Shown here piece by piece: positions 39,012 through 64,000 of a stretch of DNA of 64,000 nt (positions are counted from its first letter, which is position 1; each line of letters starts with the position of its first letter). The notes beneath the pieces are model-generated. The model worked only from the letters and a program-made list of their open reading frames with translations. It searched no databases and was not told where the DNA came from. Source of the DNA: Patescibacteria group bacterium (GTDB taxonomy: Bacteria; Patescibacteriota; Microgenomatia; Daviesbacterales; UBA10151); assembly GCA_023379125.1 (NCBI GenBank), contig JAMCSY010000004.1:58479-122478 (forward strand), read 5' to 3'. The translations under genes were made by a program, and so were the position numbers.

Positions 39012-39026
39012 AAATTTTTATGCTTA

Positions 39027-39745: not shown

Positions 39746-39794
39746 CCGTGCAAGGTGCTCTGACGAGGAGCTTCCTACCTTGCACGGTATTTTT
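39746..39794 (+). terminator. Long GC-rich hairpin plus U-tract inside a locally GC-rich 150-bp non-coding patch
   Basis: CCGTGCAAGGT...ACCTTGCACGG is an 11-bp stem enclosing the GCTC-tgacgag-GAGC hairpin, followed by TATTTTT. Confidence 0.45.
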
Positions 39795-39912
39795 AGCCAT
39801 GCCTCTTGCGAGGTTTAGGCGTAAGTAAATTTGGAAACTTACCTCACGTTAATTATACATAATTCTACAGGCTCCGGTATAATCGGATAAGGTAATAAGG
39901 ATAAAAATAAGA

Positions 39913-40629: not shown

Positions 40630-40822
40630 TCACCCCTCATTAGACTTCCGTGAGTTTTGGTCATCCGTACATCAGAATTAAGGTGTTATGGATACCGATA
40701 AGGATAAAGAAATTCAAGTAGCTATTCAAAAAGCGGCTGAACAATGGGTAAACCTCATGATGATGTTTTTACGAAGTAAACGCACCAAAAGAGGTTCAGC
40801 GAATAAAAAATAAATAATTAAT

Positions 40823-41068
40823 ATGGATAAAAATACATTTTCTACCGACTCTTACCTCCTTGCTTGTTACCTCCTTAGTGAATCCTGCCAACTTGTTTCC
40901 ATTGATCGTACTAATCCACGAAGAATGGTTTTTATTTTCCAAGAGTCTAAACGCCGAAAAGAACTTACTGATAATTTTTTAGCATATCAAGCAAGTATCG
41001 AGCCTCACCGGTTTCATAGTGCTCAAAGGGATTTAAAAGCGATGATTTATCAACGAACGACTGGGTAG
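40823..41068 (+). CDS. Small phage/mobile-element-type protein; paralog of the 27123 ORF
   Basis: Shares the motif order of 27123-27365 (see that entry). Confidence 0.5.
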   Translation: MDKNTFSTDSYLLACYLLSESCQLVSIDRTNPRRMVFIFQESKRRKELTDNFLAYQASIEPHRFHSAQRDLKAMIYQRTTG

Positions 41069-41106
41069 TTAATATACCCACGAAAAATAAGAATAAGCAT
41101 AAAAGT

Positions 41107-41514
41107 ATGGGCAAATTATTAGAGCTAGTAACAATAAAAATAAATTTCAAAATGCAGGGCAATTTTTTAGCTACCGTCACTTTAAATTGGCAAGACGAAT
41201 TCGAAGTTCGTTATTGTCGAATATACCGGTCAGGAGCAGGAAAAATATTCTTACAACCGCCGGCTTTAGGAAATGCAAATTGGGTAAAGTGTTTCGGAGT
41301 ACTTAATTATGATGACTGGAAATGGCTAGAAAAAAAGGTAATTGATCAGTTTAAAGAAGAATTAAAAGAAAAAATCGGCGAAGGAACATTTTCGCCCGCC
41401 GTTTTAAAAAGGATTGAGGAATCGGAGGAGGAAATCGTTAATCCTAATGACATACCGGACAATTTAGGAGAAACCGATATTAACTCTATTCCTACTTATA
41501 AGAACAAACAGTAA
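41107..41514 (+). CDS. Hypothetical protein
   Basis: 135-aa ORF with an acidic C-terminus. Confidence 0.4.
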   Translation: MGKLLELVTIKINFKMQGNFLATVTLNWQDEFEVRYCRIYRSGAGKIFLQPPALGNANWVKCFGVLNYDDWKWLEKKVIDQFKEELKEKIGEGTFSPAVLKRIEESEEEIVNPNDIPDNLGETDINSIPTYKNKQ

Positions 41515-41570
41515 CTATATAGTAACTAAGTAACTATATGTATATATGAGTAAAAAGGGAGTTTACATTA
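41510..41570. repeat. Iteron-like short direct repeats (AGTAACTA three times, plus AGTAAAAAG twice)
   Basis: cagtaactatatagtaactaagtaactatatg...gagtaaaaagg...agtaaaaagag. Confidence 0.4.
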
Positions 41571-41621
41571 GTAAAAAGAGTATATAGAATTAAGTAATAG
41601 TATGTATAAGTAATTAAGGCT

Positions 41622-41828
41622 ATGAATAAAATGAATTATAGAGAAATATTAGGAGAAGCAAGAGCAGTACACTTTGCTATGCATAGAGGCGCTATTACTT
41701 ATGAAAAAGCGGTCGAGTTAACGAAACCTTTACTGGGAATTCTTAATGTTAAGGCTACGGAAATAGCCAAGCGGTATAAAATTCGGCCGCGATTATTAAA
41801 ATTTCAGGATTTAGGAAGAACTATATGA
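41622..41828 (+). CDS. Hypothetical small protein
   Basis: 68-aa ORF. Confidence 0.35.
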   Translation: MNKMNYREILGEARAVHFAMHRGAITYEKAVELTKPLLGILNVKATEIAKRYKIRPRLLKFQDLGRTI

Positions 41829-41876
41829 TACATAAAGCGCGTCAGGTGTCGCACTCATTATCAGTTAATTAAAAAT

Positions 41877-43401
41877 ATGAAAAATTGTTTTATTTACCTA
41901 CGAGTTTCAACCGAAGAACAAGCTAAGGAAGGCTTTTCAATCGAAAACCAGAAAAGAGCCTGTATTGAATTTGCAAAATCAAAAGGATATCACGTTAAGC
42001 GTGTTTTTATTGATGACGGAAAGAGCGCTCGAACTACCGACAGAGCCGCTTTACAAGAAATGCTTAAGTTAGCTAAGGGACAGGAGGTTCAAAATGGATA
42101 ACCAATTACTAATAGACGCAATAATCATTTATAAAATCGACCGATTTGCTCGAAATGTTGGCGATTTTTCCGACATGTATAAAGAACTTAAAAATAAGGG
42201 AATTAAGTTAATATCCGTTAATGAGGGTGATTTGATGGAGGGAACAAGCCTTATACCCAACATTTTCGCTAGTGTGGCTCAATGGGAAAGTGAAGTTAAC
42301 AGCATGAGAACGCGAGACGCGTTAACACAAAAGTTCCGAGAGGGTTGGCAACCTACTCCTCCTCCTATCGGTTATCGAAGTGTTGGAGCTGATCGCGAAC
42401 GCAAGACTTGCGAACCGGATCCTTATACTGCCCCAATCATACGAGAGCTTTTTGAAATATATTCAACTGGAAACTATTCGATTTACGATTTACAAAATTG
42501 GCTAGCCGAGCGAAACATATCCTCTAAAAGCGGTACAAACTTAGGACATAGCGTTATCGATACGATTCTAACCAATCCTTTTTATTACGGATGGATCAGG
42601 TGGCATGGTGAAGGGAAAATGGGTAAGCAAGCGCCGCTTATAAGCAAGGACTTATTCGATACGTGCCAATATGTTTTAGCTAAACATCGTAATTTTTTAA
42701 TGCGAAAACGGCTCCACCAATTTTTACTTAGAGGCTTTGCTTATTGTAGTGAGTGTGGACAGAGGTATACCGCTGAATGGCATTTTAAACCCAGGTTTAC
42801 TAGAAGAAACGGCAAAATAGCTTATTACCATTGTCCCAAAATGAACCGTAACGGATGTCCCGCTCCTTATGTTGAAGTATCGGAACTTGAGGAACTTGTT
42901 AGAAATACCGTTAAATCAATTCAATTTAGCCAAGAATTTGTTGATGCGGTAGTAGCAAAAGCTAAGGAGTTTGTAGACGATAGCCGTAAACGGGCAACTT
43001 CTGAAACTCAAGGCTGTATTAATCAGCGAATAGCTCTTGAAAACCGGCGTAATAAGCTAGAAGACGCTTTATTAGACGGAACTATTGATCGGGTGGTATT
43101 TAAGAGAAAACACGATGAAATACAGGAACAGCTGGGTTTTATTGATAGCCGAATTAGGGAAATAGAAACAAACTCACGGGTGGATATAAAACTAATTGAG
43201 GACGTTCTTAACTTTACAAGGGATATTGGCAGGACCTATGACGAAGCGGAAGAATTTCTACAACGACACTTCTTAAGGTTTTTCTTTGAAAAAATTATTG
43301 TAAAAGAGAGGAAAATTGAGAGGGTTATTTATACGCCGGTTATAGCTACTTTAGTAGAAAACCGTCAGGTTATAATAAAAAACCTTATGCTCCTCCGGTA
43401 G
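41877..43401 (+). pseudogene. Large serine recombinase interrupted by a +1 frameshift near 42094-42101
   Basis: The 74-aa ORF (YLRVSTEEQ catalytic Ser) continues in the 435-aa ORF (KIDRFARN ..., recombinase domain, zinc ribbon CSECGQ...CPKMNRNGC) in the +1 frame. Confidence 0.65.
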
Positions 43402-43461
43402 GATTCGAACCTACAACCTTGTCGTTAACAGCGACCTGCTCTACCGTTGAGCTACAGAGGA
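43390..43461 (-). tRNA. tRNA-Asn (anticodon GUU)
   Basis: Reverse complement reads TCCTCTG-TA-GCTC-AACGGTA-GAGC-A-GGTCG-CTGTTAA-CGACA-AGGTT-GTAGG-TTCGAAT-CCTAC-CGGAGGA-G. The UCCUCUG start resembles canonical bacterial tRNA-Asn. It overlaps the recombinase stop by 12 nt. Confidence 0.8.
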
Positions 43462-51142: not shown

Positions 51143-52588
51143 CTATTGATTAGCAAACTTATCAGCCAAGAGCTGCTCTAAATCAGTATTCTTACCATCA
51201 TAGCCTAACGCCCAAATCCCTACTCCTCTTAAATGCTTTTGATTAACAAAGTCATATTTGATACCCAAGGATCGAGCATTTTCATAATGCACCACTCTAA
51301 TTTGCCCAGTTTTTGGATCAACATAAGAATACCAGGGAGATTGAGCATTTTCATCCCAATTGATTTTCATTCCCTGAGAAGCATCAGCAATTTCTGCATA
51401 AGAATAAACTCCCACATCACTGGAGTTTTTATTAACCTGGCTATTCTGACTGGCATCGGAAACAGGCCAATCATAACCGTAATAGCCAAAAGCTAGAATC
51501 AACTTTTCTGCTGGTACTTTTTCTAAATAGCTACTCATCAAACCTACCACTGAGTTATTATAGCCTTCCATGGGAGCCAAGGGTCCAGCTTGGGAAGAAG
51601 CAGGTGTATGTACGTCATAACCCATTACAACTAAAGCGTCGCTATTTTGAGCCAACATTTCTACATCTTCTAGGGTAGTTACTGAGGCTGAGTTTAAATA
51701 TGTATTTATTGTGAGCATTGATTTAGGATACTGTCTTTTCATCTCTTTATTTAAATTAGACATGAGTATCGAAAAGCCATCAATGATTTTTTGATCAGGG
51801 GTACCTACATATTCAAAATCAATATTGAGTCCATCTAGGGATTTCGAGTTCATTAGATAAAGAGCGGTATGAATAAAGTTTGCTGCTGCATCTGGAGACT
51901 GAGCAAGCTTGGTAATATTGTCATTATTAAAACATTTTAAAGTCAGAAAAACCTTAATCCGGTTCTTCTTAGCCTTCAAGATAAACTGGTCTAGATTCTG
52001 ATCATCTTGCCAAGTCTGCCAAGCCTGGGTATCTTTATCGCTCTGGCTACTTTTTACCACATTACCATTTCCATCAACTTCTAAACCAAAAAAACTGATC
52101 ATCGTTAGCATTCTAATATCAATTTGGTCTGATTGATCTACCATCCAGTAAGGTAAGTAACCAAAAATGTCTTTTTTAATTTGCCCATTTAAAGTCAGCT
52201 TGCCAGTATAGTATGGCGTACTCTGAAAAATTCGGCCTGGCTCAATTACCTGATCAGAGATAACTACTTGATCACCACTACCTGGAGCAGCCAATCTGGG
52301 TTGGGAATTATCTACTAAAGTTTGGGCAGAAGGAGCCGAGGGGCTGTTTTGCTGAAAATGGCCAAGTAAATTAGCCCGCCAAGCAACCACAAAAATAACC
52401 ACGAACAACACTACTCCCCCCAAAACCATGCTCAATCCCAAATTAAACTCCATCAATCTTTTCATCTGTCCTAATTCTTGTTCTTGCGGTGTCGGAGTTG
52501 GGTAATTTTGGCCAGAATAAGAAACCACAGGAACTGTCGGCGAACTTTTGCGGAAACGATCTAAAAAAGGAATTTTAGGTATTATCAC
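51143..52588 (-). CDS. Glycoside hydrolase family 18 (chitinase/peptidoglycan-hydrolase-like) with an N-terminal TM anchor
   Basis: GH18 catalytic motif DGLNIDFEYV (DxxDxDxE); a TM helix near residue 50. Confidence 0.6.
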   Translation of the reverse strand: MIIPKIPFLDRFRKSSPTVPVVSYSGQNYPTPTPQEQELGQMKRLMEFNLGLSMVLGGVVLFVVIFVVAWRANLLGHFQQNSPSAPSAQTLVDNSQPRLAAPGSGDQVVISDQVIEPGRIFQSTPYYTGKLTLNGQIKKDIFGYLPYWMVDQSDQIDIRMLTMISFFGLEVDGNGNVVKSSQSDKDTQAWQTWQDDQNLDQFILKAKKNRIKVFLTLKCFNNDNITKLAQSPDAAANFIHTALYLMNSKSLDGLNIDFEYVGTPDQKIIDGFSILMSNLNKEMKRQYPKSMLTINTYLNSASVTTLEDVEMLAQNSDALVVMGYDVHTPASSQAGPLAPMEGYNNSVVGLMSSYLEKVPAEKLILAFGYYGYDWPVSDASQNSQVNKNSSDVGVYSYAEIADASQGMKINWDENAQSPWYSYVDPKTGQIRVVHYENARSLGIKYDFVNQKHLRGVGIWALGYDGKNTDLEQLLADKFANQ

Positions 52589-52627
52589 TTATAAATTATT
52601 GTAGGGTGTTTATACTCTAAACACAAA

Positions 52628-53188
52628 CTATTTTTTGCTAACTGAGGTTTTCTCCAGAGGGAAATGTCTTTGTAATGATTCTGCCCAAGTATCAACTAAA
52701 CTTTTTGGGGCAATTTCTTGGTATGGAAGATACCGCGCCACTATATTTCTCACTTCATCTTTAGTTAATTGCCCAATTAAAATCATTAACTGAGCAGGGA
52801 ATCGCAGTCTAGTCAAAACATTTAAAATAGCTTTACCCTCCTTCTCGGAAAACCAAAAACTATCTAGATCATCCCAGAAGTAAAAAGTATCTCCAATTGT
52901 CACTCCTTGCGTGGAGATTTTAAATTCTATATCCTCAGGAGGCACAAATCCTAAAACATAGGTAACAAAGCTAAAAGCTAAAAGTGCGCCTATAAGCAAA
53001 AACTCTTTGGCAATTATTGAGATAAAGATTAGCAAAACTACAATAATCGCGATCGTTCGGTAGTATGAAAAATCTTTTTTACGGTAAGGGCGCGAGGGGG
53101 CTTTCCATTCAAGCAAAGTTCTAACTGGATCATTGTCAGATTCGTCCTTTGTTAACTCAGGCTTTGTCTTTTTGAAAACTTTTGGCAT
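52628..53188 (-). CDS. Membrane protein, hypothetical
   Basis: 186 aa with two TM helices. Confidence 0.4.
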   Translation of the reverse strand: MPKVFKKTKPELTKDESDNDPVRTLLEWKAPSRPYRKKDFSYYRTIAIIVVLLIFISIIAKEFLLIGALLAFSFVTYVLGFVPPEDIEFKISTQGVTIGDTFYFWDDLDSFWFSEKEGKAILNVLTRLRFPAQLMILIGQLTKDEVRNIVARYLPYQEIAPKSLVDTWAESLQRHFPLEKTSVSKK

Positions 53189-53254
53189 CTACAGTGATTA
53201 TATACTATTTTTGCTAGATTACCTTACTAGATTTTGTTACAATTAGCCTGCTTT

Positions 53255-53341
53255 GGAGAGGTCGCATAGTGGCCTAGTGCGGCGCAGTGCTAATGCGCTG
53301 TCCTCGTAAGGGGACCGTGGGTTCGAATCCCACCCTCTCCG
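53255..53341 (+). tRNA. tRNA-Ser (anticodon GCU)
   Basis: GGAGAGG-TC-GCA-TAGTGGCCTAG-TGC-G-GCGCA-GTGCTAA-TGCGC, a long variable arm, TTCGAAT, CCTCTCC-G. Its D arm is identical to that of the tRNA-Ser(CGA). Confidence 0.7.
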
Positions 53342-53355
53342 CTGACCAACCCCAT

Positions 53356-53442
53356 GGAGGGGTCGCCTAGTGGTTTATGGCGGAAGTCTTGAAAACTTCT
53401 AAGGGTGAAAGCCCTTCGTGGGTTCGAATCCCACCCCCTCCG
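53356..53442 (+). tRNA. tRNA-Ser (anticodon UGA)
   Basis: GGAGGGG-TC-GCC-TAGTGGTTTATG-GCG-G-AAGTC-TTGAAAA-CTTCT, a long variable arm, GGG-TTCGAAT-CCCAC-CCCCTCC-G. Confidence 0.75.
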
Positions 53443-54135
53443 CTATCTGGCTAAAGTCACTGCCCAAACTCGGTTGACTCCGGCCCTCTTGAGAACATAA
53501 CAGCACTCTTTTAGGGTAGAACCAGTAGTCCAAACATCATCTAGTAATAAAACATTCTTATTCTTGATATCTTCCTGTCCTATAAGAGTAAAGGCATTTT
53601 TGATATTCTGCTTTCTTTGCCAAGCAGATAAACCCACTTGCTGTTTAGTTGATCTTGATCTTAATAGCAGCTCTTGAGATTTAATACCTAATTTACTGGA
53701 TAAGATTTGGCAAAGTTTCTCAGACTGATTAAAACCACGCCAATTTTGCCTAGCTTTATATAATGGAACTGGCATAAGTAACCAACTTTCCACTCCAGTT
53801 TTTTTAATCTCTTCGATAAAAAATGGGCTATTTTTTGACCAGTATTCGATTAGTAAACTAGCTAAGGTTTGAGCCAAGGAATAGGCAAAATGATACTTGA
53901 AAGTCTGAATTAGTTTTTTTAGAGACCCTTGATAGACTCCTAAACTCCATAATCCGTCCAGACCATATTTTCTATGACAGAGGGGATGAGTTGCTCCACC
54001 AACAGCTACTCTTTCACAGTTAGGACAAACAAGGTCTGCTTGGTAGATTGCCTGCTGACATTTTAGGCACAAATCAGTCCCAAACTGACCGCAACAGGCA
54101 CAAGTTTTAGGTAAAATTAACTCTAAAAGACTCAT
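53443..54135 (-). CDS. comF: ComF-family competence protein (phosphoribosyltransferase domain)
   Basis: N-terminal double zinc ribbon (CACCGQ...CLKC...CPNC...HPLC) and a C-terminal PRTase loop VLLLDDVWTTGSTL. Confidence 0.75.
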   Translation of the reverse strand: MSLLELILPKTCACCGQFGTDLCLKCQQAIYQADLVCPNCERVAVGGATHPLCHRKYGLDGLWSLGVYQGSLKKLIQTFKYHFAYSLAQTLASLLIEYWSKNSPFFIEEIKKTGVESWLLMPVPLYKARQNWRGFNQSEKLCQILSSKLGIKSQELLLRSRSTKQQVGLSAWQRKQNIKNAFTLIGQEDIKNKNVLLLDDVWTTGSTLKECCYVLKRAGVNRVWAVTLAR

Positions 54136-54176
54136 TATTTTGATTTTATGCCTATTATCTGCTAAAATACACAGTT

Positions 54177-54567
54177 GGGGACGTACAGATTCGACGTAAT
54201 TTGCACCTTAACAATCGCAAGCCGCTCAAGCAAACTTAAGCGCAAAATATGTTTGCAGAAATTATGCTAAGGATAAATTAGCATCCCGAGTGCAAGGCCT
54301 GATGGCCTTAATGGGTCAAGGGCAATTTGCCCCAGCCCTCGCATAAGGTATCTTAGGACAATCTCTACTTGGTGGAAGTTCTAGGGTATGTACAAAGCCA
54401 AGTTGCAAATTTCTTGAGTCAGATTCAACTTAAGATTTTCTAAGATAATTGAATCAAGTATTGACTTCCTGCTGATAGGTTACATTCAGTACTTATAAAT
54501 ATATCAGCTAAGCTTGTAGAAATTGTTTTGAAGTAAGTTCGCACAGGGGTCACTCCCCTCGTCTCCA
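54177..54567 (+). ncRNA. ssrA: tmRNA (ssrA)
   Basis: 5' GGGGACGUACAGAUUCGACG matches the Bacillus-type tmRNA 5' end; 3' ...AGGGGUCACUCCCCU-CGUCUCC-A pairs with the 5' GGGGACG; an internal tag ORF ends ...GQGQFAPALA-UAA near 54344; smpB is adjacent. Confidence 0.7.
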
Positions 54568-54704
54568 CACTACGTTGTTCATGGGTATTCACAACTACGC
54601 GTGGCAAGCCACTTTAATTACAACTCATACTCAGAAATTAATGAAGTAGTGTGTCCCGCGAAGCCTTGGCGAAGTGTGACAGTAAAACCTGTTAAAATAT
54701 TTAC

Positions 54705-54941
54705 GTGTACTATACCTATATTCTTCGACTATGCGACGGTTCCTTCTATCATGGTTTCTCCAATAATCTAAAATCACGTATAGAAGAACATAAGCGAGGT
54801 ACTGTTATTTCTACTAAGAATTTAAGACCACTAAGGCTAACTTTCTATGCTGCTTTTGATACTAAAAACAAAGCATTGGAGTTCGAAAAATATCTTAAAA
54901 ATAGCTCTGGGTTTGCTTTTCGTAATAAGCATTTTATCTAA
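54705..54941 (+). CDS. GIY-YIG nuclease-domain protein (YhbQ/UPF0213-like)
   Basis: YYTYILRLCDGSFYHGFSNNLKSRIEEHKRG...LRLTFYAAFDTKNKALEFEKYLK. Confidence 0.65.
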   Translation: MYYTYILRLCDGSFYHGFSNNLKSRIEEHKRGTVISTKNLRPLRLTFYAAFDTKNKALEFEKYLKNSSGFAFRNKHFI

Positions 54942-54952
54942 ACGCTACCCTT

Positions 54953-55393
54953 CTATTCCTTCCCTCTCAGTTCCTGCTCTATTCTCCTTTGGTGATCTTT
55001 TTCTTTGAGTGCTTTTCTTTTATCAAATTCTTTTTTGGACTTACCCAAGCCGAGTTGAATCTTAATCAAGTTATTTTTATCATACATAGCTACTGGCAAA
55101 AGCATCATGTTTTTAGCAGATAATTTTCCAATTAAACTTTGAATTTGGGTCTTATGCAAAAGCAATCGGCGTGACCGCGTTGGCTCATAACCTTGTCCTG
55201 AATAGTTTTGATATCTGGGAATGTTGGCATTGATTAAATAAACTTGGTTGTTTAGAATCCGCACCGAGGCCTGAGATAAATCTATTCGTCCCGCTCTAAT
55301 CGATTTTACTTCAAAACCATAAAGTTGAATCCCTGCTTCCAGAGATTCTAAAATATGATAATTATGCCAAGCTTGCCGGTTAACAATTCGCAT
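54953..55393 (-). CDS. smpB: SsrA-binding protein
   Basis: IVNRQAWHNYHILESLEAGIQLYGFEVKSIR...LLLHKTQIQSL...KKEFDKRKALKEKD. Confidence 0.9.
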   Translation of the reverse strand: MRIVNRQAWHNYHILESLEAGIQLYGFEVKSIRAGRIDLSQASVRILNNQVYLINANIPRYQNYSGQGYEPTRSRRLLLHKTQIQSLIGKLSAKNMMLLPVAMYDKNNLIKIQLGLGKSKKEFDKRKALKEKDHQRRIEQELRGKE

Positions 55394-55442
55394 CTTCCAG
55401 CCTAGCTTAACTTTTTAGGCTCAAATTAGCAAGAAAGAGATC

Positions 55443-57284
55443 TTAGGTTTTTAGCTCAATTTGATAAATTTTACTCCCCGAAAGTAGGTAAATCTTTTTA
55501 TTCTCTTCATCCACTACCAAGTCTGTAAAAACTCCTAAACGGTCTGATTGGTACTGAGCTACATAGTTACCATTTTTATCCACTACCACAATGCGATTGT
55601 TGCCATTATCTAAAATATAAACATTGTTAGTTTTGTCAGAAACAAAGAAACTTTGTGGGTTACTAAGCGGTTTGTCTAAACCATTGAGGGTAAATTGGTC
55701 CTGATTACCCTGGGTAAACTTGAGAATAGTCCCACTACTGTTTAAAACCCAGATTGAGGCATCAATTTGCATTCTAATGCTTTGCGAAAAATCAGCACTC
55801 ACTCCTTCATTCAAGTAATTTCGTTTGTCTGAATAGCCATCAGTAATAGCAATATACTTCCAGATCTGATTTTTATTTTTATCCAGCAGATAAATGTTCC
55901 CGCCAAAACCATAAATATCAGCAATTTGTCCCCAGTCTGTGTCAGGAGCAATTACCGTAGATAAGTCTCCACTTTGCAAATCAACCCTAATAACCCCTTT
56001 ATTTTGTGAGTAGACAAAGCCATTTTGCCCATTAATGGTTACAAGTTTTGCCTGACCTAATTTATCCGAGCCCGCTAAGATTTGATGTGACTTAGAGTCC
56101 AGATTGATTGAAGCCAAGGTGCCTTCTTTTTGATCAAGTATTAATAAATCTCCTAAAGATAGCGACATATTTACGGCTTGCATATCTTGCTTAACTAAAG
56201 ACAAGTCCAGCCATACTGGCAGATCGCTAATTTGCCAAATTTTTAAAATTTCGGCGGAACTACCGTCTATTTGTTTTTGTAAATTGGTTGCTGCACTATC
56301 TTGAGGCTTAATTTTAAGAGCCCCAGCAACAGATTGTTTAGCTAAACTCAAATTTTTGATTGCTCCCCTTTGGTCACTATCTTTTTGATTCAGAGCTTGT
56401 TGATATTCAAGATTGGCTTGATTTAGATAATCATTAAACTTGCTTGATTGTTGATTGGGAAATTTGTGGGTATAAAGATAATACCCGCCTACTCCAATCA
56501 GCACAATGGCTATCGCTATGAGATATCTATACAACTTACCAGATCTTAGTAATGGCTTGATTGATAAGTTTAGCTTGGGAACCGCGGGGCGAAAAAAGAT
56601 ATTGCCCAAGCTCGATTGTTTACGTAAATCTTGTCCTGATATACCTACGATTGGTAATTCCGGTTCTTGAGTGGGTACTTCTTCCTCTATGATAATAGCC
56701 GCCAGGGGGTTAACTGTTCCAGGAGGCAAAAAATCAGTAATACTGCTTTCCCAAATGTCTACTGGCATGTTCTTCAGGGACCTTAATTCATCACCCAGCA
56801 CTTCTTTGAAACTGGCTGTAGATAAGGTTACTCTATCCCCTTGTTCTAAAAAACCTGAAATTAATTGCTCACCACTCCCAACATCATTGAGCCTAATTAA
56901 ATCCTCGCCTCGATATAAATCAGCATTCATCCGATCACCCACTACCATTAAATAAAGGACATTTTTACCCGCACTATCACTCTCAGTCGCAGCAACTAAT
57001 ATTTGGGTATTCTCTGAGTCAACCAAAGATTTTTTGATCGTTTGGACAGTCTCGTTAATCCGTTCACTGATTCCTAGCTCAGAAGAATAAAAGACGTCTT
57101 CAGCTTCTGATAAAGCTAGCCTAGTGCGTGTAAAAGCATCATCAAGACTGGCTAAGACAAGTAGATATAAGCCAGGTTCGACTCGGCTTTGTTCTGTAGC
57201 GGGTATACTTAAGGGTTTATTTACTAAAGCTAAGGCTACTTCTTGATCAGAATTTAAGCCTACAACTTTCGCCGTCTTTAACAT
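55443..57284 (-). CDS. Membrane-anchored protein with C-terminal beta-propeller-like (NHL/YVTN-type) repeats
   Basis: 613 aa with a TM helix near residue 255 and repeated ...NNRIVVVDKNGNYV / ...KKIYLLSGSKIYQI blades. Confidence 0.4.
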   Translation of the reverse strand: MLKTAKVVGLNSDQEVALALVNKPLSIPATEQSRVEPGLYLLVLASLDDAFTRTRLALSEAEDVFYSSELGISERINETVQTIKKSLVDSENTQILVAATESDSAGKNVLYLMVVGDRMNADLYRGEDLIRLNDVGSGEQLISGFLEQGDRVTLSTASFKEVLGDELRSLKNMPVDIWESSITDFLPPGTVNPLAAIIIEEEVPTQEPELPIVGISGQDLRKQSSLGNIFFRPAVPKLNLSIKPLLRSGKLYRYLIAIAIVLIGVGGYYLYTHKFPNQQSSKFNDYLNQANLEYQQALNQKDSDQRGAIKNLSLAKQSVAGALKIKPQDSAATNLQKQIDGSSAEILKIWQISDLPVWLDLSLVKQDMQAVNMSLSLGDLLILDQKEGTLASINLDSKSHQILAGSDKLGQAKLVTINGQNGFVYSQNKGVIRVDLQSGDLSTVIAPDTDWGQIADIYGFGGNIYLLDKNKNQIWKYIAITDGYSDKRNYLNEGVSADFSQSIRMQIDASIWVLNSSGTILKFTQGNQDQFTLNGLDKPLSNPQSFFVSDKTNNVYILDNGNNRIVVVDKNGNYVAQYQSDRLGVFTDLVVDEENKKIYLLSGSKIYQIELKT

Positions 57285-57321
57285 AGTATGTCTTTAGATT
57301 TTGATCTTTGGTTTTCAAAAT

Positions 57322-57597
57322 CTATTGGAAGAGCAGGCCAAATAATAAAATCACAATACCTAAGGCAACACCAGCATGCAAAATGGAAAAAGCCCGCAAG
57401 AATGGTGAAACTTCCGTAATCAAAGTTTCAGTCATCAAGGAAACTTGTCTGACCACAATTAAACTAAAGATAAAATAAAGTCCAGATAATATTAGTAAGG
57501 CAACTTTCACTACCCACCAAAAGCTACTTAATGCCAGCAGGGTAGTCGATGAAGAAGTAGTATCAACTAACATCGCTGTGGTGTCCTCCTTGTGCAT
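57322..57597 (-). CDS. Small membrane protein
   Basis: 91 aa with three TM helices. Confidence 0.35.
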   Translation of the reverse strand: MHKEDTTAMLVDTTSSSTTLLALSSFWWVVKVALLILSGLYFIFSLIVVRQVSLMTETLITEVSPFLRAFSILHAGVALGIVILLFGLLFQ

Positions 57598-58168
57598 TTT
57601 CTTGCAACTCCTGAATTCGATTTGCTACTAAATCAGGGTGCGGAATCGCAGCAAAATAGATTTGTTGCCTTTCCGCTGCAGTTTCCACTCTCACATCACC
57701 AAAATTAAACAACGAACGCAAAAACCCCTTCATGCTAGTATTAGCACTTTGTACATCTTCTAACAGCACCTCGGTTGTGTTGCGGTTGAGCAAATTTACA
57801 AAACTGATATCAGAAAGGTGCTCGTTAGTTACAATATAGATGTTAAAGTACCAAAAAAGGTATGCTTCTAGAACATAAGCTAGAATTAATAAATACCATA
57901 AAATTAACAAGGTTGCTTGGACATTATTAGGAACTACCATTGCCAGATTAAAACTAAGAGCCAGTAAAGGGATAACCTTTGGAATAAACAGGGGAATTAA
58001 AAGTCCAATTATCGCTGTAACCACCCAAGGAACATTGACCACCCAATGTTGTCTGACCAAAATTTCAATATGTTCATCTGGATCCTGATCCAGAAAACGC
58101 ATTCTGGCTGGATGGTCAAAAAAAGCTGGAAATAATGATAAACTCATCTTGTCAGGATAATAGCACAA
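57563..58168 (-). CDS. Membrane protein with a bacterial PH (bPH_2, YdbS/YdbT-like) domain
   Basis: Two TM helices followed by NEHLSDISFVNLLNRNTTEVLLEDVQSANTSMKGFLRSLFNFGDVRVETAAE. Confidence 0.5.
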   Translation of the reverse strand: MCYYPDKMSLSLFPAFFDHPARMRFLDQDPDEHIEILVRQHWVVNVPWVVTAIIGLLIPLFIPKVIPLLALSFNLAMVVPNNVQATLLILWYLLILAYVLEAYLFWYFNIYIVTNEHLSDISFVNLLNRNTTEVLLEDVQSANTSMKGFLRSLFNFGDVRVETAAERQQIYFAAIPHPDLVANRIQELQENAQGGHHSDVS

Positions 58169-58206
58169 AGCTTAGTGCTCGCAAAGCTTTTTTAGCTAAA
58201 ACTAGC

Positions 58207-59967
58207 TTATCTTTTTTCAATCGTAAATAAAGGTCCTACAATATTAATATTAGATGGTGCGCGTAAATTAAAGTAGTTTTTAAAATCAGTACCTGAAAAG
58301 TCTCTAGAACCCGCATCACCAGAGATATGTACAGTAGTAGTTGCTCCACTACTAAAATCTGCATCAACTGAGCCACTATCTATACTATTAAAGGGAGTAG
58401 TCCCGCGACTACGTAGTTCCTGTTTAACACGACCGGCATCCCAAGTATCTACTCCATCCGGGTTTGGTTTATCAACTTGAGATAAATGCTGCTGAGTTGA
58501 AGAGTCCGCTTTGGCCAAAATTAACACATTAACAATATCCGCTAGCTCATCAGGTTTGAGCCAAGCAGTACCTGAATAAGCAGATCTACTGCCCCAGTCA
58601 CAATAAAACCAGGGAGAGGAATGATCATAAGCCTTACTTTGTAAATCTGCAAAGCTACTCACTGAACCATTAGCATCAACACCTGTCTTGGTATAAGCAG
58701 TACTATTCCAACCTACATCAGAGGAACTATGATAATAACCACCAGCTGTTGAGGAAAACCATGCTTTGATTGGTTGACCACCAGAAGTGAGTACTTGACC
58801 TGCTGTAGCATTGACAGCATCAATCCAACGACTACTATTTAACTCTTGTTTAACAACTTGGCAAGATTGAGAGGGACAAATACTTGAAGATCCATTGTTA
58901 GTATAAGCTAAGGCATAACTGCGGGCAGCAATTGCTTGAGCCTTCAAAGCTTCCATCGGCCAATCAGCAGGCACTTCATAAACATGCTTCACATATTCTT
59001 CAATATTCCAATTAGTATCAAAAGACTGGCCATACTCATTAGTCCCTGCAACATGAATAGTAATTCCCTGATTATATCCAGAAGCAAGATCAGCATTAAA
59101 ATAGGTATGTAGAATATCGCTATAGTTTTGTCCTGCCTGTGCTCTACCTAATGCCCCATATTGATTAAGACCAACCCGATGCGGCACTCCATATGTAAAT
59201 AAGGCAAATTTAGGACTAAATCCTGGATCTTTACCATTAGTCAAATCAGACGAGCAACCACCTTTAGTGGTATAAGCCGAGGTTGGAAGTCCTAGGCTAG
59301 CTAATTTTTGGGCAATGAGTTGTTGCTGACGAGCCGATAGTTGAGCAATTTGGGTACTTAAATCAGCTTGATAAGCTTTCGCCTTAGTAATTTCCCCATT
59401 AAGAAAAGTAGCATTTTCATCAACTTGCTTTTGCAAGACAGCTAGACTAGCCTTGTCTTTTTCCAACTTATCTTTTTGATTAGAGAGATCAATCATCTCT
59501 GCTGTGACATCCATAATAATTTTTTGATCTTCTTGGGTGGTCGCTTGACGATAACTCAACTCTCTAAAGATATCCCCGGAATTAGACTGAGAAAAAATCA
59601 CCGTCAGAGGATCTGTCAAAAAAGATCGGATATAGTAAGATCTTACGCGCGAATTTAATAAAACCTGTTGAACAACTAATTTATCTTCACGGACTTGTAA
59701 ATCTTGTTCCTTAGCTGCAATTGAAGCTGATAAACTCTGCAACCTAACTTGAATTGAAGCCAGTTGAGTCCTCAGAGTATCTAATTGTCCTTCAAGAGGT
59801 TTTGTGGCATTCACAGACATCTCTCTGGCCTTATTTAAAGCATCAATTTGTTTTTGCAAATCATCAATTTCATCAGCCTTGGTTGGGCTGGTAACAAAAG
59901 GGGCAAATAAGACTAGACAGGTCAAGAAACCTAAGATGGCACTTGCAAACAGGTGACGCTTTTTCAT
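58207..59967 (-). CDS. SpoIID/LytB-domain protein with an N-terminal signal and long coiled coil (EnvC-like architecture)
   Basis: Signal peptide, about 250 aa of coiled coil, then the SpoIID/LytB signature EEYVKHVYEVPADWPMEALKAQAIAARSYA. Confidence 0.6.
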   Translation of the reverse strand: MKKRHLFASAILGFLTCLVLFAPFVTSPTKADEIDDLQKQIDALNKAREMSVNATKPLEGQLDTLRTQLASIQVRLQSLSASIAAKEQDLQVREDKLVVQQVLLNSRVRSYYIRSFLTDPLTVIFSQSNSGDIFRELSYRQATTQEDQKIIMDVTAEMIDLSNQKDKLEKDKASLAVLQKQVDENATFLNGEITKAKAYQADLSTQIAQLSARQQQLIAQKLASLGLPTSAYTTKGGCSSDLTNGKDPGFSPKFALFTYGVPHRVGLNQYGALGRAQAGQNYSDILHTYFNADLASGYNQGITIHVAGTNEYGQSFDTNWNIEEYVKHVYEVPADWPMEALKAQAIAARSYALAYTNNGSSSICPSQSCQVVKQELNSSRWIDAVNATAGQVLTSGGQPIKAWFSSTAGGYYHSSSDVGWNSTAYTKTGVDANGSVSSFADLQSKAYDHSSPWFYCDWGSRSAYSGTAWLKPDELADIVNVLILAKADSSTQQHLSQVDKPNPDGVDTWDAGRVKQELRSRGTTPFNSIDSGSVDADFSSGATTTVHISGDAGSRDFSGTDFKNYFNLRAPSNINIVGPLFTIEKR

Positions 59968-60199
59968 ATAATTTTTAGCTTTCTACAACTTAGTTTATTC
60001 TGAGTAAATAATATAAATATATAAGTATAGTAACTTGAAGATTACACAAATTCTATCACATGTTAGTTTCAATGAACTACTACAGACTTATACTCCCTCT
60101 GTTGGTAGTTGTTCTACTTGCTTACCTTCACCTATTAAGAACAGCAGTCAGAGGGAGGCTAGTTGCAAAAAACCCCTAATTCAGGCTAAGCTTAAGGTA

Positions 60200-60562
60200 A
60201 TGCCTAGACTGTCCAAAGTAGTTGCTTTTTTAATATTGTGCTGTGTTTCGTTTACCAATCCCTTCCCTGTATTGGCTGCCGGAGATGTTGATACAGCTTT
60301 TGGACCTATCCCCACGGATCCAACCGGTTTTGTACAAACTATCCTGAAGTTTGCTATCGCTGTAGGAGGTGGTGTTGCTCTAATCTTGATGGCATTAGGA
60401 GCAATCCAAATGATTACTTCTACAGGTAATCCGGAAGCTGTCAAAAAAGGTCAAGAACAATTTACTTCAGCCATCATTGGTCTCTTATTCATCATATTTT
60501 CTGTAATGCTTTTACAAATCATTGGTGTTAGCATATTAAATATACCGGGATTTACACCATGA
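60200..60562 (+). CDS. T4SS-type (TrbC/VirB2-like, PF18895-like) pilin paralog 1; the ORF-track start at 60035 is probably an upstream extension
   Basis: Signal peptide MPRLSKVVAFLILCCV...AAGD, a hydrophobic helix, the conserved TSTGNPEAVKKGQEQFTSAIIGLLFIIFSV core and a second helix. Confidence 0.55.
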   Translation: MPRLSKVVAFLILCCVSFTNPFPVLAAGDVDTAFGPIPTDPTGFVQTILKFAIAVGGGVALILMALGAIQMITSTGNPEAVKKGQEQFTSAIIGLLFIIFSVMLLQIIGVSILNIPGFTP

Positions 60563-60942
60563 GAGAATTAGCCTTAACATTACCTGGAGGAAGTAGTCCA
60601 ATTGAGCCACCTGCTAATTTTGATACTGCAACTTTTAGTAGTCTAGCTTCCTCAGTTTCTGCATTCCTGAATCTAATCTTTACAGTTGTTGCCTTTTTAA
60701 TGTTTTTTTGGCTCATCTGGGGAGCTTTTCAGTATATTTTTGCCGGAGGAGATAAGGACAAACTGGCTGCTGCACGTAAGAGACTAACATATGCAATCGT
60801 TGGGTTTTTAATCGCCGCAATCGCTTTTCTTGTTGCTCCGTGGGTTGAAAATATTTTTCAACCAGCTAATGTCAATGTGCAGGATGTCAGCTCTCCACCA
60901 ACTTTAGATTTTTCTAATCCTGGTGGCGGAGGAAGCTGGTAA
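60559..60942 (+). CDS. T4SS-type pilin paralog 2
   Basis: A hydrophobic helix, AGGDKDKLAAARKRLTYAIVGFLIAAIAFLV and a Gly-rich tail. Confidence 0.55.
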   Translation: MRELALTLPGGSSPIEPPANFDTATFSSLASSVSAFLNLIFTVVAFLMFFWLIWGAFQYIFAGGDKDKLAAARKRLTYAIVGFLIAAIAFLVAPWVENIFQPANVNVQDVSSPPTLDFSNPGGGGSW

Positions 60943-61225
60943 AATGGACTTGAGCACACAATATGGTTTTGGCAATATTACATCGCTTGGCCAAGGCGTT
61001 AGTTTGCTTACTATGCCAGCTTTTTCCATTGCCTCAGTTGCCGTCATCCTCTATTTCCTTTTTGGTATTTTTAAACTAATTTCCTCCGGTGGAGACAAGA
61101 ACGCTGTGGCCAGTGCTAGAAATATGATTACTCACGCTATTATTGGATTTTTAATCTTAATGTTGGTATTCTTAATTATAAAGTTTATCCCGGAAGCTTT
61201 TGGTATAAACTTAGGAATCTTTTAA
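60923..61225 (+). CDS. T4SS-type pilin paralog 3
   Basis: SSGGDKNAVASARNMITHAIIGFLILMLVFLI. Confidence 0.55.
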   Translation: MAEEAGKMDLSTQYGFGNITSLGQGVSLLTMPAFSIASVAVILYFLFGIFKLISSGGDKNAVASARNMITHAIIGFLILMLVFLIIKFIPEAFGINLGIF

Positions 61226-61229
61226 AACA

Positions 61230-61628
61230 GTGTCTAAGTTAATTGCGGCAAATTTTGATAGTGTGATTGGTGGAGTTACCCCTCCTCCTGCTTTACAAAA
61301 TCTTACTTCACAAGGTGGAGCAGGTGGTATCAGCTCATTTCTAAGTAATCTAATTCAACTAATTTATGTCGCAGCTATTCTTATTTTTGTCTTCATGGTC
61401 ATCTTTAGCGCTGTGCAATGGGTGATGTCTGGTGGAGACAAAGACAAGGTAGCTGCCGCGAGGAGTAGGTTAACTACTGCAGTTATCGGTATTATTCTCT
61501 TAGCAATCGCTTTTGTAATTATTAATGCCCTGGGGAATATTACCGGATTTGTTTTCTTTAATGGTCAGACTATTTTTGGTGATTTGCAATCAGGGAGTAA
61601 TGTTCCAGGGTACCCAGGACGTCCTTAG
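61230..61628 (+). CDS. T4SS-type pilin paralog 4
   Basis: MSGGDKDKVAAARSRLTTAVIGIILLAIAFVI. Confidence 0.55.
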   Translation: MSKLIAANFDSVIGGVTPPPALQNLTSQGGAGGISSFLSNLIQLIYVAAILIFVFMVIFSAVQWVMSGGDKDKVAAARSRLTTAVIGIILLAIAFVIINALGNITGFVFFNGQTIFGDLQSGSNVPGYPGRP

Positions 61629-61681
61629 TAAGTGAAGAATCATAACAATCAGGCTATTGACAAGATGTTAGAATACACTTT

Positions 61682-62089
61682 ATGATTAATTTAATGAAAA
61701 AAGCTATCGTTGCAACAAGTGCAATTATTTCACTCGTTAGCACAACAGTTACTTATGCTGCAGGAGAAATTGTTAACGTCCAGCCTCCAACCGGCAAAGG
61801 AATTGCCGCTAATACCGGAGTTGGTACGGTAATTACAAATATTATTAACCTGGTTTTTATTGTAGCGATTTTGTTAGTGTTATTCATGTTAATTTCTGGC
61901 GCAATTACCTGGATTACCTCTTCTGGAGATAAAGAAAAGGTTGGTCAGGCAAGAGGGCGAATTATTAATGCTTTAATCGGACTTGCTATTTTGGCTTTGG
62001 CTTTCTTAATTCTTAACGTCGCTGGGAATTTGATCAACTTTAATCTTAGTAATCTACAGCTAAATCCATTAAATACCCCAAATCCCTAA
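61682..62089 (+). CDS. T4SS-type pilin paralog 5
   Basis: Signal peptide ...TVTYAAGE; TSSGDKEKVGQARGRIINALIGLAILALAFLI. Confidence 0.55.
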   Translation: MINLMKKAIVATSAIISLVSTTVTYAAGEIVNVQPPTGKGIAANTGVGTVITNIINLVFIVAILLVLFMLISGAITWITSSGDKEKVGQARGRIINALIGLAILALAFLILNVAGNLINFNLSNLQLNPLNTPNP

Positions 62090-62164
62090 TTAGAAAATAA
62101 AGATCAGGAAGGAAGAGACTTTCCAATTATTGAACTATTATTTTTTTAATGCTAAGCTGTAGCT

Positions 62165-62455
62165 ATGCTTGGTCCTGCTGGTCCACAACAGCTACAAGAA
62201 ATGATCCAGCGACTTATTAACCTCTCAGTGGGGTTAGCTTTTATAGTTTTGACAGTCGTTCTATTAATTGCTGGTTTAAAATATTTAACTTCAGGTGGTG
62301 ATCCCAAAGCACTAGCTTCAGCTGGAAACACAATTACCTGGGCACTTTTAGGAATCGTATTTATGATCCTCGCTTGGTTAATCTTACTGTTAATCGAAAA
62401 ATTTACTGGGGTCAACGTTACCCATTTTTGCATTCCTGGAACCAGTGGCTGTTAA
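62165..62455 (+). CDS. T4SS-type pilin paralog 6
   Basis: TSGGDPKALASAGNTITWALLGIVFMILAWLI. Confidence 0.55.
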   Translation: MLGPAGPQQLQEMIQRLINLSVGLAFIVLTVVLLIAGLKYLTSGGDPKALASAGNTITWALLGIVFMILAWLILLLIEKFTGVNVTHFCIPGTSGC

Positions 62456-62467
62456 TTCTTAGTACTC

Positions 62468-63880
62468 ATGAGAATAAAACTTATTCTAAATATATTTATT
62501 TTGCTAGTCTCTTTTATCATTTTAGTTGGTTCAATAATGTTCTCTAAGGGAACAGTTTTCGCTCAAGGTACAGAACCTACCCCAGTGCCCTGTGATCACA
62601 CCTTCCATCACGACAACTATAGTTGTGATAACAACCAGATTATTGATAACCAATCAAATGGTTGTGGTGAGCATACTTCCTCAGTTAAGGAAGATTGTAG
62701 TACCAAAAATGGTGATGTTGATTTTATTTGTGTTTCTGGACAAGGAGAGTGCTATAAATACTATCATGCAGTTTTAGAAATTCAGCCCAACAACCCCGAA
62801 CTTGGTGATAACAATGTCCAGGTTAGTCTGCATAGTACTTACTCTTGTTATAACGGGGACAATAATTTTATTTTAGACTTAGGTTCAGGAATGAGATCAA
62901 TTAACAATTTTGACCAATCATGTAATCTAGTTTTTCAAAACTGCCGCCAAACAGCTTATGGTGACTTGCGCTGTTTATGGACCGGAACTTGCGTAGCCAA
63001 GGGTTTACAGTCTAACTATAATGCGACTTTCTCTTCAGAAAAAAGCACTTTTAACCCTTATGGAGTTGAATACTATCCCCTGCAAGTAGGTGATTGTAAT
63101 GCAAGTTTTAATTATTCAATCGTCAACGCACAAACTTGCCAGGCAGACCCAGCTGATGCGATGAATGTAACAGATCCAGTCGCCACCCAAGATGCTTTCT
63201 TGTTTAATAGTCAAAAAATTGTTGCCCCAAGCCTTCGCGGAGATCGATTAAATGCCAAAGCTATGATGCAAGGGTTAATGCCAGATTCAATTAATAATGA
63301 AATCAACAATAACCTTGTTTCACAAGACAACTCTGGTGATATATGGCCTCAGGTTGGAACTCAGGTTGGTTTTTTCAATACCTTAATAGGAAGAATTTTA
63401 TGTAACGTTCCAATATTAAGAACACTCTTATATTGCCCAATTTATGAAAACCTTGCAACAGATCACTACTTATTTAACAACACAGACCAAACTACTTTAT
63501 TTGCGAGTCAATCAGCCGCACTAGCTGCAACTTCCAATCCTCCAAATCTAGACTTGGAGCCTGTTAAACCTAGCTGCTATCTGAAGGATATTGAATTACA
63601 AAGTGGTGAATTCACTCAGGGAAACATAAAACTGGACACAATCGATACTGACATGGCTCAAACCGTATACGGTGAAGGAATGCCCACTTTTTCAAACTAC
63701 ACTACCTATGCCCCAAGCATTGGTTCTTTAGGAATAGATGCAACAAAAAACAATATCAGTTTAGAGGGAAAGGTTTTTTACGGTGACCAGCGCATGTTGC
63801 AAGTTAACCTAAATCAAAAACTCTTTAATCAGACAAATTATCCAGATGGTGTCGTTCCATTCAACGATGCTAGTTATTAA
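62468..63880 (+). CDS. Secreted Cys-rich protein downstream of the pilin array (candidate pilus-associated adhesin, speculative)
   Basis: Signal/TM N-terminus; about 24 Cys spread across 470 aa; no catalytic motif. Confidence 0.45.
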   Translation: MRIKLILNIFILLVSFIILVGSIMFSKGTVFAQGTEPTPVPCDHTFHHDNYSCDNNQIIDNQSNGCGEHTSSVKEDCSTKNGDVDFICVSGQGECYKYYHAVLEIQPNNPELGDNNVQVSLHSTYSCYNGDNNFILDLGSGMRSINNFDQSCNLVFQNCRQTAYGDLRCLWTGTCVAKGLQSNYNATFSSEKSTFNPYGVEYYPLQVGDCNASFNYSIVNAQTCQADPADAMNVTDPVATQDAFLFNSQKIVAPSLRGDRLNAKAMMQGLMPDSINNEINNNLVSQDNSGDIWPQVGTQVGFFNTLIGRILCNVPILRTLLYCPIYENLATDHYLFNNTDQTTLFASQSAALAATSNPPNLDLEPVKPSCYLKDIELQSGEFTQGNIKLDTIDTDMAQTVYGEGMPTFSNYTTYAPSIGSLGIDATKNNISLEGKVFYGDQRMLQVNLNQKLFNQTNYPDGVVPFNDASY

Positions 63881-64000
63881 TTGGATAGTTGCATAAAATC
63901 TAAATATTCAGTACGCTTGTACTTAGAAAATCTATGTTTAAATTTAAAATACTAAGTAGTATCTTACTAACCCTAATTACTATACTGTTTTTTTCTCATA

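Follow-up and report, generated by a model that had tools for sequence, protein, structure and literature searches.

Six position-specific T4SS_pilin paralogues and a strain-variable Cys-rich neighbour in a standard pilin locus of Microgenomatia

Background

How ultrasmall bacteria that belong to the candidate phyla radiation (CPR, or Patescibacteria) recognize and exploit their hosts is not yet settled. In Southlakia epibionticum ML1, the only species that is tractable, a type IV secretion system (T4SS) and its pilin series are essential, the latter for epibiotic growth (Wang et al. 2023, PMC10633639). A recent survey catalogued 441 VirB2 arrays of 2-11 genes, with a mean identity of ~25% and found especially in Microgenomatia and Saccharimonadia; it detected no adhesins, and VirB6 was scarce in Microgenomatia (Quinonero-Coronel et al. 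2025, PMC12102498). A 2025 review speaks of six "structurally conserved but sequence-divergent" pilins (PMC12857230). Here we describe an array of this kind in a Daviesbacteria-related member of the Microgenomatia. Six tandem T4SS_pilin genes (pil1 to pil6; + strand, 60200-62455) are followed directly by a gene for a Cys-rich secreted protein, at a position that we call the slot. The genes lie in a stretch of 64,000 nt (hereafter the window) of assembly GCA_023379125.1, contig JAMCSY010000004.1, positions 58,479 to 122,478.

The array resembles those of Southlakia and of the PMC12102498 survey in its protein family (PF18895), in its tandem, co-oriented paralogues that have diverged to ~25% identity, and in belonging to a chromosomal, monoderm-type T4SS locus that has PrgI/VirB3, TrsD and VirB4 genes and no relaxase seen nearby. 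With Southlakia it also shares a pilin number of six, a likeness that is drawn from the published description and not from direct sequence comparison. It differs in its host, which is not a Saccharibacterium as Southlakia is, and in its gene order, since the slot gene, a gene for a polytopic membrane protein and two genes on the opposite strand separate the array from PrgI-TrsD-VirB4. A first-pass annotation of the window had called the locus unusual for its number of paralogues and its linked Cys-rich protein. That view does not hold: such arrays have been published, and six is both the mode and the minimum of the 6-9 pilin genes per locus among the 48 related loci described below. The locus is the standard layout of its clade, already published in kind, and not an oddity. 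What goes beyond the descriptions cited above, which are without these features, is the finding of positional orthogroups, of the Cys-rich slot protein and of its strain-level variation.

Results

Six divergent T4SS_pilin genes in an operon-like array

Seven open reading frames (ORFs), all on the + strand, occupy 60035-63880, where the first-pass annotation had placed them. The six small ones share one architecture, two strongly hydrophobic segments around a short, polar and net-basic loop, which is apparent in both hydropathy and alignment and agrees with what had been read from them earlier. A Pfam search, which had been proposed as a check, matched all six proteins to PF18895 T4SS_pilin, five of them above its gathering score of 26.6 bits: pil1 (60200-60562, 120 aa from ATG 60200; E = 7.9e-8, 32.7 bits), pil2 (60559-60942, 127 aa, without a signal peptide; E = 3.4e-7, 30.7 bits), pil4 (61230-61628, 132 aa from a GTG start; E = 5.4e-7, 30.0 bits), pil5 (61682-62089, 135 aa, with a signal peptide ending ...TYA|AGE; E = 1.5e-9, 38.2 bits) and pil6 (62165-62455, 96 aa; E = 1.4e-11, 44.7 bits). 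The sixth, pil3 (60944-61225, 93 aa from ATG 60944 in an ORF that opens at GTG 60923; E = 4.2e-5, 24.0 bits), falls 2.6 bits under the cut-off, yet it aligns with the other paralogues and its positional orthologues match the family. The NCBI label for pil2 is already 'pilin' (MCL5410179.1). Spacing between the seven genes is operon-like, at -4, -20 (+1 if the pil3 ATG is used), +4, +53, +75 and +12 nt. The array had been taken to begin at TTG 60035; the ORF there is real, but its gene, pil1, most likely starts at ATG 60200, because NCBI annotates the same start in the sister strain and the resulting N-terminus is signal-peptide-like.

The conserved [ST][SG]GGD core that had been claimed for the loop stands in part. 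The loop consensus is SGGDK..V..AR, and sequences of this type are present in 4/6 paralogues (the pil2 loop reads AGGDKDKLAAARKR), while the loops of pil1 (STGNPEAVKKGQ) and pil6 (SGGDPKALASAG) depart from it. Only three columns are invariant in the alignment of the six, and identity to its first sequence is 18-25%. Prediction of membrane segments and signal peptides was likewise mixed: two hydrophobic segments were found in all six proteins, and a recognizable cleavable signal peptide only in pil1 and pil5. An AlphaFold2 model of pil5, built with 88 family sequences, predicts helices at residues 47-79 and 84-118 that form a hairpin (predicted local distance difference test score, pLDDT, 85-94); this two-helix hairpin, recorded with pLDDT above 90, is consistent with the T4SS-pilin fold that had been proposed.

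All 88 aligned relatives match PF18895, and 20/88 also match TrbC/VirB2 (PF04956) at E < 0.1, with a best value of 1e-8. Within the window, pil6 matches PF04956 at E = 0.007, and none of the six reaches the gathering score of that family (27.9 bits). The claimed kinship with VirB2/TrbC therefore survives in a weaker form: the six proteins are members of PF18895 and, as the profiles suggest, distant kin of VirB2/TrbC, not members of PF04956. Among NCBIfam models, NF045849 ('pilin-like conjugal transfer protein' of Mycoplasma integrative and conjugative elements, ICEs) is matched by pil6, pil2 and pil5 at E = 7e-8, 4e-7 and 2.4e-4, all three below its curated cut-off of 40 bits. The relatives that score highest against the pilin profile, P0021-P0027, are 207-239 aa long and reach 161-194 bits, ~2x a single pilin; they may be tandem two-domain pilin fusions.

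Two other classes of small surface protein were considered for the six. The type IV prepilin motif G|(F/M)(T/S)L(I/L/V)E is found in 0/6 N-termini and each protein carries two hydrophobic helices instead of one, so a type IV pilin or pseudopilin reading was rejected. That they might be independent lipoproteins was also ruled out, since the lipobox L-[ASTVI]-[GAS]-C occurs in none of the six; five are without any N-terminal Cys, and in pil1, the only one with such residues (LILCC), the -1 residue is Leu.

Likeness to described hairpin pilins

The window pilins have two long hydrophobic helices with a short, polar, basic loop between them, as do the TrbC/VirB2 pilins and the Ced/conjugation pilin of Aeropyrum pernix (PDB 8dfu; PMC9905601). 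Their HMM (hidden Markov model) similarity to TrbC/VirB2 is weak in the window set and grows stronger in the relatives. Apart from these sub-threshold scores and the want of a sequence match to a solved pilin, they differ from TrbC/VirB2 in number, there being six to nine paralogues where TrbC/VirB2 systems have one major pilin, in their monoderm host, and in that most of the paralogues are without a long cleaved leader.

The 80-residue hairpin model of Mycoplasma ICEs (Mbov_0395/MMCAP2_0565, NF045849) aligns nearly full-length with pil6, pil2 and pil5. Those ICEs differ in being mobile conjugative elements of wall-less cells for which no six-gene array has been described. When the TrsD-like and VirB4 proteins encoded farther along the locus were compared with Mycoplasma ICE models (in the sister-strain contig, 17712-20457), NF045975 matched both, VirB4 at 3.4e-77. 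The nearest NCBIfam models of pilins, TrsD-like protein and VirB4 are thus Mycoplasma ICE models (NF045849, NF045975), which hints that the Patescibacteria T4SS may have inherited a pilin-like hairpin from its monoderm ancestor and did not co-opt it from diderms.

Positional orthogroups across Microgenomatia

We assembled 48 species-representative Microgenomatia loci using the polytopic membrane protein as search anchor, because the Cys-rich alignment was too divergent to serve as a seed, and labelled their ORFs by HMM. Named loci among them come from Daviesbacteria, Woesebacteria, Shapirobacteria, Beckwithbacteria and "Microgenomates". The conserved plan is 6-9 tandem pilin genes, the slot gene, the polytopic protein, a variable insert, PrgI, TrsD and VirB4. 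Genes for SmpB, an NHL protein, DUF5657, bPH and SpoIID often precede the arrays on the minus strand.

When array genes are matched to the window set, their best matches follow the order 1-2-3-4-5-6 in at least 10 species, with wide margins (e.g. 105 vs 32 bits). Orthologues are about 37-67% identical, as against 19-40% among the paralogues inside the window. The first array gene of relatives is 49-64% identical to pil1 and matches the other window paralogues at no more than 33 bits; in most relatives it encodes a protein of 323-574 aa with a large N-terminal ectodomain. Positional orthologues of pil2, pil3 and pil4 are 37-46%, 43-61% and 34-56% identical, respectively, one pil4 orthologue being an uncalled ORF (8628-9035 of locus L005). 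The most widely recognizable orthogroup is that of pil6, which is the last small pilin gene in all of 38 arrays except L038 and L039 and has the motif FTGV-VT-F; a C-terminal Cys pair (FCIPGTSGC) is seen in this clade only, in 12/36 pil6-type genes. The earlier judgement that the six are diverged paralogues and not recent duplicates is thus borne out across species, and the 64-kb window contains no recent duplicate, DNA repeat or silent cassette of the pilins. All six proteins are 100% identical between the window strain and its sister strain (contig L001 of GCA_023485375.1). The sequence comparisons argue for non-redundant subunits of a fixed ensemble, anciently diverged and individually conserved.

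The Cys-rich slot protein

The slot gene (M1563_01100; 62468-63880, + strand) encodes a protein of 470 aa that opens with a hydrophobic signal segment (residues 1-32, ...VFA|QG) and contains 16 Cys. Its N-domain (~50-216) is Cys-rich (13 Cys) and beta-rich, and its C-terminal module (~250-466) is mostly helical. Together with the adjacency of the two kinds of gene in relatives, these features confirm that a Cys-rich secreted protein is linked to the array. Searches of Pfam and NCBIfam gave no match and no detectable catalytic domain, and no similarity to VirB5 was detected. An AlphaFold2 model was of low confidence (pLDDT 63.6) and had only generic immunoglobulin-like or cohesin-like matches, which we discounted as evidence for an adhesin; the tip-adhesin role that had been suggested is a hypothesis.

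Among 1.84e9 representative proteins, the slot protein has 19 relatives. They are united by a C-terminal module of ~220 residues with invariant C312, C323, G385, P406, R442 and P459, while their N-terminal parts differ. A motif resembling SLT (soluble lytic transglycosylase) that was spotted by eye in relative P0004 was unconfirmed by Pfam. Members of the family lie directly 3' of a pilin gene in 4/4 informative contexts and in 8 further species loci. Across the 48 Microgenomatia loci, the slot nearly always holds a large signal-peptide protein with 10-37 Cys, and the slot proteins of different lineages fall into several families that are mutually unrelated by BLAST; those of ten other lineages matched in Pfam only a C-terminal pilin domain and, weakly, CarboxypepD_reg in one case. 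In eight other species the slot protein (913-984 aa, 22-27 Cys) ends in a T4SS_pilin domain of pil1 type (E = 3e-10 to 8e-13).

In 6/7 species pairs conservation across the locus is lowest in the slot gene, at 25-31% protein identity; the corresponding values in these pairs are 38-67% for the pilins, 38-45% for the polytopic protein and 73-78% for VirB4.

As side observations, giant ectodomain-pilin fusions whose last ~70 residues are the pilin domain were seen in the Woesebacteria-like loci L031, L037 (6386-9193), L038, L040, L045, L046, L047, L052 and L055; those studied more closely have a signal peptide as well as 22-27 Cys. A family of small proteins with a single transmembrane (TM) segment, ~170-186 aa long, often lies between the slot and polytopic genes in other lineages (L006, 1893-2435, and L008, 2027-2542, which are 38% identical; also L013, L031, L037, L040, L046, L047, L052, L053 and L055) and is absent from the close relatives of the window.

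Allele replacement in the slot gene between strains

Between 52468 and 63273 the window and L001 are 99.8% identical in DNA sequence, with complete identity over 52468-62564 and again over 63900-64000. The colinear alignment has 25 mismatches, all within 62565-63268; 19 of these change the third position of a codon, and some lie close together as a small mosaic patch (62565-62629). Beyond 63240 the slot gene is sharply divergent: the proportion of synonymous differences (pS) is 0.885, which means that synonymous sites are saturated, the nonsynonymous divergence (dN) is 0.226, and there are two indels. Over 63300-63799, an alignment without gaps gives 48-71% identity per 100 nt. This strain-variable segment of ~640 nt (63241-63880, + strand) covers the C-terminal ~210 codons; the module it encodes is still full-length and is ~66-86% identical per 50-residue block. 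Each allele recurs in an independent assembly, the window allele in L004 and the L001 allele in L003.

The simplest reading is that the divergent allele was imported by homologous recombination. A diversity-generating retroelement was excluded as the source, since the 64-kb window holds no template repeat and the colinear part shows every type of substitution, with no adenine bias. Gene conversion from a silent cassette was rejected, there being no extra copy of the variable region within the window.

Farther downstream, proteins are 98-100% identical between the strains apart from a second small patch. This lies ~1.4 kb past the 3' end of the window (L001, ~12900-13200), where the polytopic gene and a gene for a 573-aa protein converge with their 3' ends; the last ~60 and ~23 residues of the two proteins, respectively, are 65-90% identical, and the rest is essentially identical.

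T4SS genes beyond the window and neighbouring genes

The last 67 nt of the window (63934-64000, + strand) are the first 22 codons (MFKFKILSS...) of the polytopic membrane protein M1563_01105 (517 aa, MCL4366746.1), which matches L001 11467-13023. In L001 the order past the slot gene is a 518-aa polytopic protein, two genes on the opposite strand, a PrgI-family (VirB3-like) gene (5.6e-7), a gene for a protein like the N-terminal part of TrsD/VirB4, and VirB4, which matches NF045971 at 9.3e-109 and 364.7 bits (cut-off 325). The same genes are present in the same order on the 186,849-bp contig to which the window belongs (an NCBI metagenome-assembled genome, MAG, with locus tags M1563_*): MCL4366746 to MCL4366751 run consecutively after the slot protein MCL4366745, with PrgI, the TrsD-like protein and VirB4 as MCL4366749 to MCL4366751, so that VirB4 is six genes past the 3' end of the window. 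The TrsD-like and VirB4 proteins are identical in the window genome and L001, and PF18895 arrays are encoded with T4SS core genes in ~30/48 related loci as well. The apparent isolation of the array is therefore a window-edge effect, and the case is an example of how a standard locus, cut by such an edge, can seem to be an orphan.

The first-pass annotation had named a VirB4-like ATPase at 3642-6044 (- strand), 55 kb away, as the only T4SS ATPase in the window. This reading was mistaken, as the true VirB4 lies on the same contig beyond the window and the 800-aa product of 3642-6044 is a homologue of VirD4/TraD/TrwB-type coupling proteins (T4CP) by its sequence matches. It carries the Pfam domains TrwB_AAD_bind, TraG-D_C and T4SS-DNA_transf, matches TraD (5.2e-16) and, over residues 392-705, VirD4-like CD1115 among NCBIfam models, and has TrwB and DotL as PDB matches. 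VirB4 identity was ruled out, since only its P-loop (residues 398-419) matches VirB4_CagE, the best hits are coupling proteins, and BLASTP against the VirB4 of the locus aligns 38 residues only. Its link to the locus is putative. The distance fits the published distribution, in which nearly every Patescibacteria genome has T4CP homologues, mostly distant from virB4.

The polytopic protein family occurs at the same position in 48 species. The protein has a signal peptide, an ectodomain of ~125 aa and at least 5 TM segments; it has no match in Pfam or NCBIfam or among PDB sequences, and TrbL is matched by 1/41 relatives (E = 0.004). By topology and position it is a candidate for a divergent VirB6-like channel subunit, and thus for the VirB6 that has been reported to be scarce in Microgenomatia.

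On the other side of the array, a gene at 58207-59967 (- strand) encodes a SpoIID/LytB-domain protein of 586 aa (PF08486, 6.2e-17; TIGR02669, 2.7e-37) with an N-terminal anchor and a coiled coil. The domain had been named correctly, but the gene lies on the opposite strand and is transcribed divergently from the array. SpoIID is directly 5' of the array in 15 of the 48 species loci. The protein may be a cell-wall-opening partner or merely a conserved neighbour, and shared ancestry of the gene block could explain the adjacency equally well.

Discussion

On balance we think it probable, with modest confidence, that the six genes are the pilin module of a chromosomal T4SS of the Patescibacteria type (monoderm, and derived from mating-pair formation class FATA, MPF-FATA), whose products form a non-redundant heteromeric fibre with an external, Cys-rich partner for host contact. 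The pilin-domain fusions and the gene linkage are our grounds for a heteromeric fibre with such a partner. Each pilin would be inserted in the cell membrane as a helical hairpin with both ends facing outward and the basic GGDK..A.AR loop in the cytoplasm. The VirB4 ATPase would then extract the subunits and polymerise them into one heteromeric, pilus-like fibre or conduit across the wall. This topology and the extraction by VirB4 are modelled on what is known of the VirB2 and TraA pilins. In such a fibre pil2-pil5 would be the core types, pil1 the one whose counterparts in most relatives bear an ectodomain, and pil6 a conserved subunit adjoining the slot gene. The slot protein would be exported by Sec, stabilised by disulfides and joined to the fibre on the outside as a host-contact or specificity element, and its divergence and allele replacement would reflect selection from changing host surfaces.

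Several observations weigh against this. No PF18895 pilus has been seen in any Patescibacterium, and T4SSs of the Gram-positive type are normally without pili. The four pilins other than pil1 and pil5 have no signal peptide and carry a hydrophilic N-terminal tail of 12-33 residues ahead of helix 1. The PF04956 gathering score is reached by 0/6 (pil6 at 17.0 bits, pil4 at E = 0.6 and the rest without a match), a six-pilin profile searched against PDB sequences recovered designed helical proteins only and no solved pilin, and a Foldseek search of the pilin model against the PDB gave no significant match. Finally, it is the family-conserved C-terminal module of the slot protein that varies between the strains and not the N-domain, in which a variable receptor-binding head would predict the variation; this counts against the simple version of a host-contact element.

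Since no pilus has been seen and the parent class of T4SS is without pili, the main rival is that the hairpins are membrane-embedded parts of the channel (VirB3-like or "pilin-like"), with no extracellular pilus, and that the slot protein is a wall accessory or a secreted substrate. We consider this unlikely. It would suit a system derived from monoderm MPF-FATA machines, and the sub-threshold NF045849 matches of three window pilins (E = 7e-8 to 2.4e-4) accord with it, as small hairpin proteins of Mycoplasma ICEs (CDS13 and CDS15) have been read as VirB3-like in a review. Hairpins also occur inside integral membrane proteins, for 3/41 polytopic neighbours give TrbC-like matches, and in Gram-negative systems pilin subunits are required for transfer even without a pilus (review). 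The locus, however, already has a separate PrgI/VirB3-like gene, and six to nine conserved paralogues are many for the lining of a channel. Fusions of a Cys-rich ectodomain to a pilin are easiest to understand with the pilin module on the outside of the cell, and by structure the best match is a conjugation pilin in its assembled form, although the Foldseek search yielded none that was significant.

Somewhat more doubtful still is a role of the slot protein as an effector, delivered by the T4SS or Sec, or as a scaffold of cell-envelope enzymes, in which the C-terminal module would serve for docking or secretion and the variable N-terminus as cargo. That only the C-terminal ~220 residues are common to the family is what one would expect of such a protein. 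Two relatives have weak, sub-cut-off domain matches (P0019, glycosyl-hydrolase-core, E = 0.0013; P0012, SdrD_B-like, E = 6.5e-5), and in L035 the slot is taken by a SpoIID-like gene. Classical N-terminal signal peptides in all members of the slot family, however, point to Sec export rather than to T4SS translocation from the cytoplasm, the slot protein of the window is without a detectable catalytic domain, and the pilin-fused slot proteins of other lineages favour attachment.

That the paralogues can replace one another as major pilins, for antigenic or host-range variation, as has been proposed for the VirB2 copies of Bartonella and Anaplasma and was suggested for Patescibacteria arrays by the authors of PMC12102498, would agree with the high divergence of the array (18-25% identity) but is very improbable, because each position is its own orthogroup in an order kept across species whose slot proteins are ~30% identical, because the six pilins are unchanged in two strains that differ sharply in the neighbouring slot gene, and because the window offers no duplicate, repeat or cassette from which to vary.

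We return to the heteromeric fibre with its Cys-rich partner. Type IV pilus and type II secretion system (T2SS) sets (GspH-K, PilVWX-PilY1), and the T-pilus with VirB5 at its tip, pair conserved small subunits with a large extracellular partner. The window locus may follow the same logic, with non-interchangeable small subunits in fixed order beside a large, fast-evolving extracellular protein, but the likeness is one of organisation only: there is no homology, and the window pilins are without the class III signal G|F-T-L-I-E. In its full form, the proposal is a heteromeric VirB2-type pilus on a plan undescribed for any T4SS, with six non-interchangeable subunits in fixed order, pil1-type ectodomains and a recombining Cys-rich partner that sets host specificity. 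So specific a claim is tentative and, taken whole, improbable. If it were true, a T4SS fibre with an organisation like that of the minor-pilin/tip-adhesin sets of type IV pili would be the means by which Microgenomatia attach to their hosts or tap them, and the slot gene would be a readable host-range marker in uncultured CPR bacteria. The residual interest of the locus is in its fixed six-subunit organisation and its hypervariable, recombining slot protein, and the slot position is a concrete candidate for a host-specificity determinant in the uncultured class Microgenomatia.

Other features of the window

Two large serine recombinase genes (28460-30289 and 42094-43401, both + strand) bracket a type I restriction-modification (R-M) system, with HsdR at 36309-39011 (- strand) and HsdM adjoining; the second recombinase gene abuts a tRNA-Asn gene (43389-43461). 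The region 28460-43461 looks like an integrated mobile element. Between the R-M cluster and the second recombinase gene is a match over the full length of LOOT RNA (RF03000; 39709-39821, - strand), at 86 bits where the gathering score is 46.4. An exact copy of the HsdR protein turned up only in a Logan contig and not in the sister MAG; as a gauge of strain relatedness HsdR was set aside as uninformative, because its gene is in a probable mobile element.

The link that had been drawn between comF and the array is unsupported; comF belongs to a block of housekeeping genes whose synteny is kept in the sister strain. A transfer-messenger RNA (tmRNA) gene (54177-54570, + strand), an ORF with a GIY-YIG domain (54705-54941, + strand) and SmpB (54953-55393, - strand) likewise have the same arrangement in the sister strain. 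At 3250-3322 (- strand) lies a tRNA-Ile gene with the anticodon TAT (UAU); most bacteria read AUA with a lysidine-modified CAU tRNA.

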